Source: an uncultured Actinomycetes bacterium
Lineage (GTDB): Bacteria; Actinomycetota; UBA4738; HRBIN12
NCBI GenBank assembly: GCA_963799625.1
Contig: CAWCXU010000001.1
Coordinates: 57,979-121,978 of the forward strand
Direction of reading: 5' to 3'
DNA length: 64,000 nt
The notes under the pieces are model-generated. The model searched no databases. It saw nothing but the letters and a program-made list of their open reading frames with translations, and was not told where the DNA came from. Shown one piece after another: positions 50,858 to 53,482 of the stretch (the first letter of the stretch is position 1; each line of letters begins with the position of its first letter). Made by a program: the position numbers and the translations under genes.

Positions 50858-51214
50858 ATGGACACCAGGGAGATCACACAGGCGCGACCGAGCGGTACGA
50901 AGACGCCTCGGCGCAGGCCGATCGCGGCGGTCGTCATCGGCCTCGCGCTCGTCATCGTGGTGGCCGTCATCGGCGCGCTCGCCATCGGCTCCGGGGTCTC
51001 AGACGGGGGCCGGCAGACGACACCCGCGCAGGTGGCCCAGGTCGCGCCCGGTCACACCCAGCCGGCCACACTGATCCACCGGATCGCGATGCAGTCGGTG
51101 AACCCGACGCCCGCGCAGGTGGTCCAGGTCGCGCCGGGTCACACCCAGCCGGCCACACGGATCCACCGGATCGCGATGCAGGCACTAGACGCGACGTCCG
51201 GGCGCAGGGGTTGA
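50858..51214 (+). CDS. Single-TM protein with an internal tandem repeat
   Basis: AAGGAG SD; basic N-term, TM, then two copies of TPAQV(A/V)QVAPGHTQPAT(L/R)IHRIAMQ. Confidence 0.65.
   Translation: MDTREITQARPSGTKTPRRRPIAAVVIGLALVIVVAVIGALAIGSGVSDGGRQTTPAQVAQVAPGHTQPATLIHRIAMQSVNPTPAQVVQVAPGHTQPATRIHRIAMQALDATSGRRG
51020..51181 (+). repeat. 75-bp near-identical direct repeat x2, period 87 bp (29 codons)
   Basis: Copies at 51020-51094 and 51107-51181. Confidence 0.9.
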
Positions 51215-51324: not shown

Positions 51325-51729
51325 ATGGCATCATCGTTCCCAGGGTTGCAGCACGTCGCGCTCACGGTTCGCGACCTGTCGGCCAGCGTTCCGTGGTACG
51401 AGGCGCTCTTCGACGCGAAGCCCGTCCTCGACGAGGACACGGATCCGGGCTTCCATCACACCGTCTATCTGATCGGCGACAGCGGGCAGCTGTTCGGCCT
51501 GCACCAGCACACGACGCCGGCCCTCGAGGGGGACTTCAGTGAGTTCCGTGTGGGACTCGACCACGTGTCGTTCGGCGTCGCCGATCGCGGCGAGCTCGAG
51601 AAGTGGGCGACCCGGCTCGACGAGCTGGGCATCGAGCACGGCGGGATCAAGGACGCGAGCTACGGGTCGGGTCTGAGCTTCCGCGACCCCGACGGCATCG
51701 CGCTCGAGCTCTTCTGCGGCCCCGCCTGA
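51325..51729 (+). CDS. VOC/glyoxalase family protein
   Basis: LQHVALTVRDL...WYEALF, GLDHVSFGV, SFRDPDGIALEL. Confidence 0.88.
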   Translation: MASSFPGLQHVALTVRDLSASVPWYEALFDAKPVLDEDTDPGFHHTVYLIGDSGQLFGLHQHTTPALEGDFSEFRVGLDHVSFGVADRGELEKWATRLDELGIEHGGIKDASYGSGLSFRDPDGIALELFCGPA

Positions 51730-52508
51730 GCCGCCTCGAACAGCGCCACCCAATCGAACACGTCGAGATCGGCCGGCCGGGCGCCTCTCGCCAGCCCTCG
51801 ACCGCGTAGGCATGTCGCGATCATGCGCGGCGGGATCGTCCGGACCGCTCGCTCGACCGGCGTATCCCCCCGACGGAACGCGCCGGCGAGCATCGCCCGA
51901 TAGGCGGGTCGTGCTTCGGCCGGCAGGAGTTGCGACGAGCGGCGGCGGATCGCGAGGAACCCGGCATCGACCGATGGCCGCGGTTCGAACGCTGAGGCGG
52001 GAAGCTGCCGAACGAGCCCGAACTCCCACCAGGGCTGCCACCCGAGCGACATCAGGTTGGTGGGGCGCGGTGACGCGCGCTTGCGTGCCACGTGGGCTTC
52101 GACCAGCAGGTCCGCCCCGGTCACCGGCACGACGGGGTCGTCGAGCAGACGCCGCAGGATCGGGGTTGTCGCCGCGAATGGGAGGTTGCCGACCACGCGG
52201 AAGGGCGTCTCCGGCAGGGAGACACTCAGGATGTCGCCGTGCACGATCTCGACGTTCGTTAGGTGACCGAAGCGAGCTCGCAATGACTCTGCGAACCGCG
52301 GGTCGATCTCGACCGCGATGACCCGGCGGGCCACCTCCGACAGTGGTGCCGTCAACCGGCCCCCGCCGGGCCCGATCTCGACGACGAGCTCGTCGGGGCC
52401 GATGTCGGCCTGCCGGATCAGCTCCCGAGCGACGTCGTCGCTACGAAGGAAGTGTTGTCCGCGAGCGGTCTCGCCGCTCGCGCCCCGGGACGCTCCTCGC
52501 GCGCCCAC
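51660..52508 (-). CDS. erm: Erm-like 23S rRNA adenine N6-methyltransferase
   Basis: GQHFL, VVEIGPGGGRLT, AVEIDPR, HGDIL, FRVVGNLPF, WQPWWEF, PASAFEPRPSVDAG. Confidence 0.75.
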   Translation of the reverse strand: MGARGASRGASGETARGQHFLRSDDVARELIRQADIGPDELVVEIGPGGGRLTAPLSEVARRVIAVEIDPRFAESLRARFGHLTNVEIVHGDILSVSLPETPFRVVGNLPFAATTPILRRLLDDPVVPVTGADLLVEAHVARKRASPRPTNLMSLGWQPWWEFGLVRQLPASAFEPRPSVDAGFLAIRRRSSQLLPAEARPAYRAMLAGAFRRGDTPVERAVRTIPPRMIATCLRGRGLARGARPADLDVFDWVALFEAAQAGPQKSSSAMPSGSRKLRPDP

Positions 52509-52533
52509 GGACCCTCACCGTGATGATGCCCAT
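52441..52533 (-). CDS. Putative erm leader peptide (MGIITVRVR...), overlapping the erm start out of frame
   Basis: GAGGAG SD 6 nt before ATG 52533; RVR at codons 7-9. Confidence 0.5.
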   Translation of the reverse strand: MGIITVRVRGRARSVPGRERRDRSRTTLPS

Positions 52534-52621
52534 GTCGGTCTCCTCGATCGACGGAACCCTACACCGCCCTCGGACCGGCCGAGGGGTGATCCGGGTGGGC
52601 GAGCGCTGCGAACCGGGGTCG

Positions 52622-53482
52622 ATGGCGACGGTCGCTGCGGTGGGAGAGTTCGACCTCGATCGGTACCTGCGCGCCTCCAAGCGCGTGGATCTGTCCGGGG
52701 TCGAGTGGGGCCTGATCGGACGGACGCCGTTGCCCCCCGAGCACGCTCGATGCCTCACCTACATGATGGACATCGAGACGCACACGGCCGTCTTCCTCCG
52801 CGATCTCCTCGCGACCCGCGCAGGGTTCGACGCCGACGTGACCGCGTTCCTGTCGTGCTGGGCCTACGAGGAGGTCTGGCACGGCGAGGCGTTCAGCAGG
52901 TTCCTGGGGGAGGCGGGGTACACGCTCGCGCCGGATCACGCGGTGGTGCGGGCGGACGATCGATACCCGTCCCGGTCCGAACGCGCCGAGTGGATCCGCC
53001 GGGCGCTCGGCCGCAAGGGCTACCTTTCCCACATCGGGACCCTGCTCGGGTCGGCCGCGTTCAAGGACTTCGTCGCGATCCACATGACCTGGGGCGCCGC
53101 GAACGAGCTCACCACGCTGTCGGCCTACCACCGCCTGATCGCGAAGACCGAGCACCCGCAGCTGGTGCAGATGCTCCAGGCCATCATCAAGGACGAGCGG
53201 CGCCACTTCGCGTTCTACCGGGCGCAGGCCAGGCTGCGGCTCCAGGGGCCGACGGCGCAGCGGATCACCCGCTGGGCCATAGACCACCTCTGGGCGCCGG
53301 TCGGCACCGGGGTTCGGCCGCAGCCCGAGACCGACTTCGTCGTCGCCTATCTCTTCGGCGACACGGACGCGCAGGGGACCCTCGAGGACATGCAGGCGAC
53401 CATGAACGAGCTTCCCGGACTGCAGGGATCCCGGTTCCTCCGCGACGCCGTCGCGGCGGCCCGCGCACGTACGGCCTGCTAG
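52622..53482 (+). CDS. Ferritin-like diiron protein (acyl-ACP desaturase/AurF-like fold)
   Basis: DIETHT, WAYEEVWHG, ANELTT, IKDERRHFAFY diiron motifs. Confidence 0.75.
   Translation: MATVAAVGEFDLDRYLRASKRVDLSGVEWGLIGRTPLPPEHARCLTYMMDIETHTAVFLRDLLATRAGFDADVTAFLSCWAYEEVWHGEAFSRFLGEAGYTLAPDHAVVRADDRYPSRSERAEWIRRALGRKGYLSHIGTLLGSAAFKDFVAIHMTWGAANELTTLSAYHRLIAKTEHPQLVQMLQAIIKDERRHFAFYRAQARLRLQGPTAQRITRWAIDHLWAPVGTGVRPQPETDFVVAYLFGDTDAQGTLEDMQATMNELPGLQGSRFLRDAVAAARARTAC

Follow-up and report, generated by a model that had tools for sequence, protein, structure and literature searches.

An inducible erm gene is, to our knowledge, the textbook example of a nascent peptide sensing a drug, and in every characterised case that we know of the stalled ribosome remodels the RNA for a second ribosome. 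The locus described here, found in a stretch of 64,000 nucleotides from an uncultured Actinomycetes bacterium (the window), raises the question of how this logic could work when the sensing ORF and the start of the erm gene occupy the same nucleotides.

The erm gene and the ORF across its start

The gene, its start and the leader ORF lie on the minus strand as follows.

51660 to 52508, minus strand: erm, predicted from profile score and homologues to encode an Erm-family 23S rRNA (A2058) N6-methyltransferase of 282 aa
52506 to 52508, minus strand: GTG start codon of erm, +1 with respect to the leader frame and overlapping leader codons 9 and 10
52441 to 52533, minus strand: leader ORF of 30 codons, MGIITVRVRGRARSVPGRERRDRSRTTLPS, with its TAG stop at 52443-52441
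52540 to 52545, minus strand: Shine-Dalgarno (SD) sequence GAGGAG of the leader ORF, followed by a 6-nt spacer and the ATG at 52533
52501 to 52515, minus strand: leader codons 7-11, R-V-R-G-R, two overlapping +x+ motifs
52512 to 52519, minus strand: SD-like GGTGAGGG inside the leader, 3-6 nt ahead of the erm GTG, supplying the TGA that closes the erm frame upstream

The erm product passes the NCBIfam model Erm23S_rRNA_broad (NF000499; 229.8 bits versus a cut-off of 212) and fails the ksgA model TIGR00755 (131.8 bits versus 171). A separate KsgA, which passes the ksgA cut-off with 215.8 bits, is encoded elsewhere in the same genome. The best PDB relatives of the product are Erm(38) (7f8a) and ErmE (6nvm), and the closest named class is Erm(46), with 44.7% identity over 69% of the query. 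Membership in a named class takes at least 80% amino-acid identity; the product is below this threshold for every named class, and the class-specific NCBIfam models score it far under their cut-offs. Judged by these identities, it is a new Erm class, at most about 45% identical to named Erm proteins. Erm homologues occur in 18 of 61 related genomes, a patchy, accessory distribution.

Read from 52533 to 52441 on the minus strand, the leader opens with the residues MGIITVRVRGRA, encoded by ATG GGC ATC ATC ACG GTG AGG GTC CGT GGG CGC ... TAG. R-V-R occupies codons 7-9 and R-G-R codons 9-11. The first-pass annotation of this DNA had described a strong SD ahead of a leader MGIITVRVR with R-V-R at codons 7-9, and this can be read directly in the sequence; the leader ORF carries its own initiation signal (GAGGAG-N6-ATG in the window) at the predicted 5' end of the erm transcript. 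The same annotation had placed the only erm-frame start, GTG 52508, inside codon 9, with a TGA three codons upstream, and we confirmed this. The GTG consists of the final two bases of leader codon 9 (CGT) and the following G (C-GTG). Because the erm frame is closed by that TGA and contains no ATG, GTG or TTG between GTG 52508 and the GQHFL motif, GTG 52508 is the sole possible erm start. Leader and erm share 68 nt in the window; across the family the overlap is 30-68 nt long. The SD-like GGUGA lies 6 nt ahead of the GUG, and both elements fall within leader codons 5-10.

Conservation across related loci

The first-pass annotation had proposed a comparison of orthologues, and the two-frame layout was found in 83 related loci, 71 of them distinct, from genomes of the same genus and from soil metagenomes; these loci are mutually related, and counts over the 71 or the 83 are not counts of independent events. 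Erm identity among them falls to about 41%, and another family of the same phylum is included. A related-locus search of genome contigs returned mostly KsgA-like or very distant genes, with no credible overlapping +x+ leader. Homologues with as little as about 50% identity share the Erm N-terminus read from GTG 52508, and its 16 residues counted from the GTG are kept in more than 60 homologues of 281-285 aa.

The overlap falls at leader codon 9 in 68 of the 71 distinct loci, and the leader consensus M-[GS]-x-[FI]-x-V-x-V-R-[GA]-R-A is likewise present in 68 of 71. R9 and R11 are both invariant (68/68), while residue 10 is G, A or E. The R-V-R arrest motif suggested by the first-pass annotation stands as R7-V-R9 in the clade of the window, whereas the motif invariant across the whole family is R9-x-R11. 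Codon 9 is CGT in 68/68 loci as compared to 11% CGT among the Arg codons of erm bodies, and CGT is the only Arg codon able to yield a GTG in this overlap. At one locus (L158), the common codon CGC encodes R9, and it is a CGT at R11 that the GTG overlaps. The start codon is GTG in all 71 distinct loci. At erm codon 2 the third base is four-fold degenerate and doubles as the first base of the leader's Arg11 codon; it is C in 70/71 (background, 43%), and residue 2 of Erm varies (G, A, R, V, S) while R9 and R11 of the leader do not. Synonymous variants occur at leader positions G2, T5, V6 and V8. By this comparative evidence the overlap layout is far beyond chance, and the leader peptide itself is under selection, with a conserved arrest-type motif. 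Conservation of C25, C31 and G34 could be caused in part by the hairpin stem described below rather than by the peptide.

The signals for initiation are conserved as well. AGGAG or GAGGA is found at the leader SD position throughout the clade of the window. The erm SD-like GGUGA, at -11 to -7, is 90-100% conserved across the family; leader codon 5 ends in G in 63/68 loci, and codon 7 begins with A in 64/68 even though its residue varies (R, T, M, I). The leader stop is always close to the GQH codons and is formed in the clade of the window by a rare codon pair, CGT-AGC. It lies between about 27 and 65 nt from the GUG, at 65 nt in the clade of the window and at about 44 nt in the class of 23-codon leaders. 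Some 23-codon leaders have a second +x+ motif at codons 20-22 (RLK, RSR, RPR, RAR), which is not conserved.

Transcript start, RNA folding and known leaders

One candidate promoter element and two hairpins are relevant to the transcript, again on the minus strand.

52556 to 52561, minus strand: putative -10-like hexamer TAGGGT, proposed from conservation of a TAnnnT hexamer only
52485 to 52510, minus strand: hairpin HP1, CCG(U)GGGCGC - loop - GCGUCCCGG, whose 5' arm includes the erm GUG
52460 to 52482, minus strand: hairpin HP2, CGCGAGCGG-CGAGA-CCGCUCGCG, a perfect 9-bp stem in erm codons 9-16

A TAnnnT hexamer is located 21-33 nt upstream of the leader ATG in all 37 SD-led distinct loci. In 33 further distinct loci a TAGACT-type hexamer ends 6-10 nt upstream of the leader ATG, and 31 of these have no SD while 2 are ambiguous; about half of the loci look leaderless-like. 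Across the family the transcript is predicted to begin at the leader ATG or a short distance ahead of it. Because a scan of the window for sigma-70 consensus promoters and terminators gave no match, it is conservation of the hexamer that points to TAGGGT as the promoter. With this candidate promoter the 5' UTR would be about 14-16 nt and the leader ORF would be the first element of the transcript. A promoter directly upstream of the leader, together with the leaderless-like half of the loci, leaves no room for a classical attenuator. A comparable arrangement exists in the leaderless Cys-responsive sORFs of mycobacteria, in which a sensor ORF begins at the first transcript base and controls a downstream gene (bioRxiv 10.1101/834739). 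These sORFs differ from the present leader in that they sense amino-acid supply and their stall site lies clear of the start of the gene that they control.

RNAalifold on a MAFFT alignment returned only four spurious pairs, because the 3' arm of HP1 shifts register between clades, and it was replaced by per-sequence folds and by pairing probabilities with shuffled controls. In the local folds HP1 has a median dG of -20.9 kcal/mol family-wide, at least two of the three start-codon bases are paired in 58/66 sequences, and the stem has GC/CG and U-A/U-G exchanges at several positions. The pairing probability of the GUG is 0.79 overall versus 0.59 in shuffled controls, a moderate excess; in the window it is 0.52 versus 0.43, with a fold z of -0.37, so that in the clade of the window it is indistinguishable from chance. 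The HP2 stem is kept with differing sequences in that clade (GAGCAGG/CCUGCUC, GAGCGG/CCGCUC, GAGUGGC/GCUGCUC). HP2 was considered as an intrinsic terminator and rejected, there being no U-tract after the stem. A search for an alternative pairing partner of the HP1 3' arm, with the 5' arm or the ribosome footprint masked, found no conserved 2:3 structure. Rfam gave only a chance sub-threshold match (c-di-GMP-II-GAG, 17.7 bits versus a gathering score of 40).

The first-pass annotation had noted a likeness to known erm leaders, and the leader indeed resembles ErmCL and the leaders of erm(55), erm(46) and erm(36), each of which ends upstream of its erm gene. ErmCL, from ermC of staphylococcal pE194, is also a short 5' leader with a similar N-terminus (MGIFSIFVI, as compared to the family consensus MG[IT]F[TA]V[TM]VR here). 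It arrests with Ile9 in the P site (PMC5499644), and the same codon number overlaps the erm GUG in the present family. The ermC start is held in a hairpin, as the GUG of most relatives may be in HP1. However, ErmCL ends upstream of ermC, and its stalled ribosome frees the ermC SD for a second ribosome by alternative pairing, whereas here a stalled ribosome is predicted to sit on the erm SD and start, and the search gave no alternative pairing. The leader extends beyond the erm ribosome-binding site, and no conserved switch from 1:2 and 3:4 pairing to 2:3 pairing that would free the erm SD and start appeared; the view of the first-pass annotation that classical SD unmasking is absent holds on both counts.

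ErmDL (ermD/ermK, of the +X+ R-L-R class) likewise has an Arg-x-Arg near codons 6-11 of a short leader. It has 14 codons, stands apart as its own ORF and precedes attenuator hairpins, whereas here R9-x-R11 shares bases with erm codons 1-3. The leaders of erm(55), erm(46), erm(36) and erm(X), from the same phylum, are related peptides (MGITSVAVIRIRRF, (V)GNTNIAVTEFRRF, MGSPSIAVTRFRRF), that of erm(55), MGITSVAVIRIRRF, having been published (bioRxiv 10.64898/2026.07.08.737060). Their hairpin 5' arm begins at the Arg codons, as it does here. Unlike the present leader, they have 14-15 codons, lie about 150 nt upstream with stem-loops and have a separate erm ribosome-binding site. In a tree, 79 overlap-type Erm sequences are set apart from the four named Erm proteins, which group as a clade of their own (SH-aLRT 100). 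We found no prior description of an erm leader overlapping the erm start in the open-access literature searched, which included the uORF4u paper.

From arrest to expression

The arrest motif, the erm SD and the erm start are superimposed and have been kept so over deep divergence. The textbook logic is therefore excluded, and another route from arrest to expression is required. It is very probable that the leader is a real drug-sensing leader. That it is the conserved macrolide-sensing leader of a new Erm class, in which sensor and erm start share nucleotides and a hand-off mechanism operates, is a reading that we favor with rather less than even confidence.

We propose that in the absence of drug ribosomes would finish the leader to its stop, the hairpin would re-form behind them and little Erm would be made. 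A macrolide in the exit tunnel would arrest the ribosome when its P site is occupied by leader codon 9 or 10. In +X+ arrest, as in ErmDL, X is in the P site and the second Arg is in the A site (PMC8298421). Because the erm SD and GUG both lie inside leader codons 5-10, the arrested ribosome would cover them; the sequence layout supports the earlier suggestion that a ribosome at the predicted stall site would be exactly on the +1-frame erm start. The anti-SD could pair with GGUGA at initiation-like spacing. Drop-off of the peptidyl-tRNA, or splitting or rescue by a factor such as HflX, would then resolve the complex and leave a 30S subunit or a vacant 70S ribosome placed like a post-termination ribosome at a stop/start overlap. 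Re-initiation one base over, on the GUG and perhaps with a new 50S subunit, would produce Erm, at a yield of at most one re-initiation per arrest.

Post-termination ribosomes re-initiate at the nearest start codon with an SD-like sequence (PMC5972666), and in termination-reinitiation or 70S scanning the next ORF is likewise started at an adjacent start guided in this way. The difference is that no stop codon is present here, and the proposed "termination" would be a drug-induced abortive release at the arrest site. We know of no precedent for such a release serving as the termination event for re-initiation. Programmed arrest peptides usually keep the peptidyl-tRNA stably bound, and release from the arrest may therefore be slow. 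We put forward, still more tentatively, an "arrest-to-initiation hand-off" as an undescribed class of switch, in which the drug-arrested leader ribosome would be converted in place, one base over, into the erm initiation complex. Such a switch would operate without attenuator RNA, would suit leaderless transcripts and would be widespread among erm genes of uncultured soil Actinomycetota.

Coupling by unfolding is an unlikely alternative. A separate, drug-free 30S subunit would initiate at the GUG behind the leader ribosome or in slowly refolding RNA, and the drug would alter the time for which the hairpin is open, for example by slowing ribosomes at a later +x+ motif or at a P-x-stop leader end. 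The conserved hairpin over the GUG, the conserved SD-like element and the nearby leader stop maintained with rare codons agree with this explanation, and a ribosome at the codon 20-22 motif of 23-codon leaders would cover the 3' arm of the hairpin and leave the GUG uncovered. However, this second motif is not conserved, the distance from stop to GUG is variable, the 3' arm has no conserved alternative partner when the 5' arm is masked, and the invariant motif is on the GUG rather than downstream of it.

We give somewhat less weight to a leader that is functional without sensing a drug. It would be a mini-ORF for ribosome loading or coupling on a structured, often leaderless mRNA, and Erm would be constitutive or otherwise regulated, for example through backward re-initiation from the leader stop. 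Starts more than 40 nt distant, on either side, are within reach of post-termination ribosomes (PMC5972666). The leader stop of the 23-codon class is about 44 nt from the GUG, and regulatory leaderless sORFs are known in mycobacteria (bioRxiv 10.1101/834739). However, the peptide sequence and not the ORF alone is conserved, with a +x+ motif and a resemblance to macrolide-responsive erm leaders; the hairpin between stop and GUG would impede backward scanning, and in the clade of the window the stop and the GUG are 65 nt apart.

The first-pass annotation had named re-initiation and +1 frameshifting as the two routes by which induction could occur. Re-initiation fits the data better. In a drug-induced +1 frameshift or hop, the arrested ribosome would enter the erm frame and produce Erm fused to the first 9-10 residues of the leader. 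Ketolide-induced frameshifting within ermCL, in which the drug-bound ribosome changes frame to induce ermC, offers a parallel (Gupta et al. 2013, reviewed in PMC5009743). The ermCL shift is -1, only carries the ribosome past the leader stop to unfold the RNA and does not enter the erm frame. In the window, codon 10 with the next base reads GGG-C. On this sequence the tRNA-Gly of the P site could move +1 onto GGC, which would bring an Ala codon in place of the Arg codon into the A site and relieve a +x+ arrest. Among the 68 loci, however, a conserved slippery site with P-site re-pairing is absent: GGG-C is present in only 25, and the GGC-C, GCG-C, GGT-C and GAG-C found elsewhere cannot re-pair. 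CGU cannot re-pair with GUG either. The frameshift would leave the strict GTG, the rare CGT, the SD-like GGUGA and the upstream erm-frame TGA unexplained, and we consider it improbable. Hopping of tRNA-Arg from CGU to an erm-frame CGA or CGC was also considered and was rejected, since the landing codon is not conserved.

It is a little more doubtful still that arrest triggers RNA processing. Stalled ribosomes are subject to A-site or RNase cleavage, and a cut at or beside the arrested ribosome would create a new 5' end near the GUG and a leaderless erm mRNA for actinobacterial 70S ribosomes. About half of the family seems to start the leader ORF leaderlessly, so the hosts are probably proficient in such translation, but the conserved SD-like element would be superfluous and cleavage would need high precision. 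The alternative raised by the first-pass annotation, a one-base assembly error splitting the frame of an erm gene that really starts at ATG 52533, has nothing more in its favor than a strong SD and an ATG upstream in another frame, and is refuted to the point of negligible probability by the two-frame layout in 71 distinct loci of independent assemblies and by an Erm N-terminus that, read from the GTG, keeps its length and sequence in more than 60 proteins.

If the hand-off is true, drug-induced abortive translation would become a productive regulatory event, and macrolide action would be tied to re-initiation, ribosome-splitting and rescue factors. uORF finders that demand a non-overlapping leader, as in the erm(55) study, would miss sensors of this kind. 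The layout defines a large environmental Erm clade that is probably inducible, and its compact switch may show a new way of turning macrolide resistance on.

The erm gene and its overlapping leader

The predicted product of the window's erm gene scores 229.8 bits against the NCBIfam Erm model, above its cut-off of 212, and falls below the cut-off of the KsgA model. Its best relatives of known structure are Erm(38) and ErmE, and the host genome contains a distinct, bona fide KsgA. Only 18 of 61 related genomes have a homologue, a distribution that fits an accessory gene. The nearest named class is Erm(46), with 44.7% identity across 69% of the protein, and database relatives are labelled just "Actinomycetota bacterium" MAGs. 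On sequence comparison, we assign the gene to the Erm family as a predicted new class from an uncultured Actinomycetota lineage. A glyoxalase/VOC-family gene (PF00903; 51325-51729, plus strand) is convergent with erm and shares about 70 nt with its 3' end. Further on, in an ORF at 50858-51214 (plus strand), a stretch of about 30 residues (…QVAPGHTQPAT[LR]IHRIAMQ…) occurs twice as a direct repeat, in a region where several overlapping ORFs open on both strands.

Features of the leader and erm start
52561-52556, minus strand: putative -10-like hexamer TAGGGT
52545-52540, minus strand: leader SD GAGGAG, 6-nt spacer to the ATG
52533-52441, minus strand: leader ORF, ATG GGC ATC ATC ACG GTG AGG GTC CGT GGG CGC ... 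= MGIITVRVRGRARSVPGRERRDRSRTTLPS; ATG at 52533, stop TAG at 52443-52441
52508-51660, minus strand: erm ORF, 282 codons, beginning one base into leader codon 9
52508-52506, minus strand: erm start GTG (C-GTG, last two bases of leader codon 9 plus the next G)
52482-52460, minus strand: perfect 9-bp hairpin (HP2, inside erm codons 9-16), covarying in the window's clade

In the erm frame of the window, a TGA lies three codons 5' of the GTG, and GTG 52508 is the only ATG, GTG or TTG ahead of the GQHFL motif. The elements described in the first-pass annotation (SD, leader, R-V-R codons, C-GTG overlap and upstream TGA) were thus all correct. Its alternative, that an assembly indel had split one frame into two, did not survive. 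More than 60 homologues of 281-285 aa share the start position (V/M-[GR]-A..., 14-16 residues ahead of GQHLL). The DNA compared came from related genomes (18 loci) and soil metagenome contigs (80 loci). Of the 84 loci whose erm N-terminus could be located, 83 have a proximal ATG that opens a -1-frame ORF running over the erm GTG; the remaining leader starts with GTG. Removal of duplicates left 71 distinct loci. The conserved N-terminus and the recurrence of this layout refute assembly error as the cause of the two frames. A strict nucleotide pattern of leader and overlap matched 3 of 401 genomes in a sample of the phylum, each time immediately ahead of an erm, and one match belongs to another family. 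By these comparisons the layout extends to a large environmental Erm clade. The Erm at L136 (metagenome contig C688J18823_10001646) has a very long branch (2.26) in the tree and a normal leader, which suggests a frameshifted or chimeric gene copy.

Conservation across the overlap

The erm GTG takes its first two bases from an Arg codon of the leader: codon 9 in 68 of 71 loci, and codon 8, 10 or 11 in one locus each. This Arg codon is invariably CGT, the sole Arg codon able to create GTG, and CGT makes up 11% of Arg codons in erm bodies. At locus L158 the common CGC encodes R9, and it is R11 that has the CGT overlapped by the GTG, which indicates that the T serves to create the start codon. Leaders follow the consensus M-[GS]-x-[FI]-[TA]-V-x-V-R-[GA]-R-A, with R9 and R11 invariant (68/68). 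Synonymous variation at G2 (GGC/GGT/GGA), T5, V6 and V8 argues that the peptide itself is under selection. Erm residue 2 is free to vary within the overlap (G, A, R, V, S). The four-fold degenerate third base of erm codon 2, which is the first base of the leader Arg11 codon, is C in 70 of 71 loci (background 43%). This fixed C, despite erm degeneracy, and the invariant arginines point to R9-x-R11 as the family-wide arrest motif. The R7-V-R9 motif first proposed is present but peculiar to the window's clade, which carries both (RVRGR). A natural variant that could reveal which of the two +x+ motifs matters is L169 (genome G097, another family of the phylum), whose leader MGMVMVRVRGS… keeps R7-V-R9 and has Ser in place of R11; its Erm N-terminus is shorter.

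An SD-like GGUGA, 90-100% conserved, lies 6 nt ahead of the erm GUG and also supplies the UGA closing the erm frame upstream. The third base of leader codon 5 is G in 63 of 68 loci; Thr is encoded there by ACG 43 times versus ACC 2 and ACA 3, even though 40% of the Thr codons of erm bodies are ACC. Codon 7, which encodes R, T, M or I, begins with A in 64 of 68 loci. Retention of these bases despite residue and codon choice is the signature of an SD-like element.

The erm GUG sits at the base of a GC-rich hairpin, HP1 (5' arm CCGUGG...), with a median dG of -20.9 kcal/mol in a 38-nt local window. In 58 of 66 distinct sequences, local folds left no more than one of the three start-codon bases unpaired. 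Between clades the 3' arm changes in sequence with complementarity kept: the partner of U is A (22) or G (26), and two stem positions alternate G-C and C-G. Across the family the GUG pairing probability was 0.79, versus 0.59 when the downstream sequence was shuffled. Within the window's clade the corresponding values, 0.52 and 0.43, were indistinguishable, and the fold z was -0.37. Support for HP1 burying the GUG is moderate rather than strong. The leader stop falls near the GQH codons: relative to the first G of GQH, it begins 4 nt upstream in 41 loci and 17 nt downstream in 27, and the rare codon pair CGT-AGC creates it in the window's clade.

Transcript starts and known erm leaders

Of the distinct loci, 37 (the window among them) have an SD ahead of the leader ATG and a TAnnnT hexamer 21-33 nt upstream. 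A further 33 carry a TAGACT-type hexamer ending 6-10 nt short of the ATG, and 31 of these have no SD, the pattern expected of leaderless transcripts starting at the leader AUG. Both forms place the leader first on the RNA, with the erm start 25 nt into it, which rules out a classical attenuator. The inverted repeat GTGCCGG-N12-CCGGCAC is conserved in the leaderless-type clade (L007, L008, L134, L138, L144 and others), about 15-40 nt 5' of the leader ATG and just ahead of the TAGACT -10 hexamer. It could be a terminator of the upstream gene or a transcription-factor operator; an operator would add a second, transcriptional control layer. Adjoining the window's erm promoter is a divergent 289-aa ORF (52613-53482, plus strand) without a sequence match in Pfam, NCBIfam or PDB; its two E-x-x-H motifs, AYEEVWH and KDERRH, hint at a di-iron protein of the ferritin-like kind. 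Long antisense frames 5' of the leader point to the same neighbour at L091 and L093.

In plasmid records, erm(36), erm(46), erm(X) and erm(55) all have conventional 14-15-codon leaders about 150 nt upstream of erm: MGSPSIAVTRFRRF, (V)GNTNIAVTEFRRF, MLISGTAFLRLRTNR and (V)GITSVAVIRIRRF. There, stem-loops and a separate erm RBS follow the leader, whereas the window-type leader overlaps the erm start. The overlap-type consensus MGIFTVTVRGRA clearly resembles these peptides, and also that of ErmCL (MGIFSIFVI). The protein tree groups the four named Erm proteins in a single clade (SH-aLRT 100) apart from 79 overlap-type sequences, without fixing its position relative to the root. The open-access papers searched, the uORF4u paper among them, describe no erm leader overlapping the erm start. 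A 2026 preprint proposing the erm(55) peptide as a leader required that the leader start not overlap erm (bioRxiv 10.64898/2026.07.08.737060).

When ErmCL arrests, codon 9 occupies the P site (PMC5499644); in arrest at +X+ motifs the P site is occupied by X and the A site by the codon of the second Arg (PMC8298421). By analogy, the P site would lie on codon 9 (nt 25-27) or 10 (nt 28-30), and the erm GUG is nt 26-28. Under either rule the arrested ribosome (footprint about -13 to +14 nt) is predicted to cover the SD-like element, the GUG and the HP1 5' arm. The geometry argued in the first-pass annotation, a predicted stall on the erm start, thus applies family-wide.

Possible routes to erm translation

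Because a second ribosome cannot initiate during the first's arrest, productive models must act via the arrested ribosome or after its departure. We tentatively favor, at somewhat below even chances, a hand-off from arrest to re-initiation. The arrested ribosome would have melted HP1, and its anti-SD could pair with GGUGA at initiation spacing. Loss of peptidyl-tRNA or ribosome splitting would leave a particle like a post-termination complex on SD and start. A post-termination complex starts again at whichever SD-preceded start codon lies nearest (PMC5972666), and the released particle would do so at the erm GUG. The hand-off would explain the fixed codon-9 geometry, the GTG with its rare CGT, the SD-like element, a hairpin blocking free initiation and the lack of attenuator RNA. 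Against it stand the usual stability of programmed arrests and the weak hairpin support in the window's clade.

Initiation by a fresh 30S at the GUG after unfolding is unlikely, as no conserved downstream pause site or alternative pairing was found in the family loci. Slightly less likely still, the leader is a coupling ORF rather than a drug sensor, which does not account for peptide conservation. Of the two options first suggested, re-initiation is thus preferred and +1 frameshifting fits poorly: it has appeal in the window, where a GGG-C slip would swap the A-site Arg codon for Ala, but slip-prone context occurs in just 25 of 68 loci and the conserved GTG and SD are left without explanation, making it improbable. 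RNA cleavage yielding a leaderless GUG erm mRNA is speculative and the least probable.

The first-pass interpretation is borne out in part: the leader is real and of the arrest type. The predicted stall geometry excludes the classical erm mechanism, and there is a substantial chance that a new mechanism operates.
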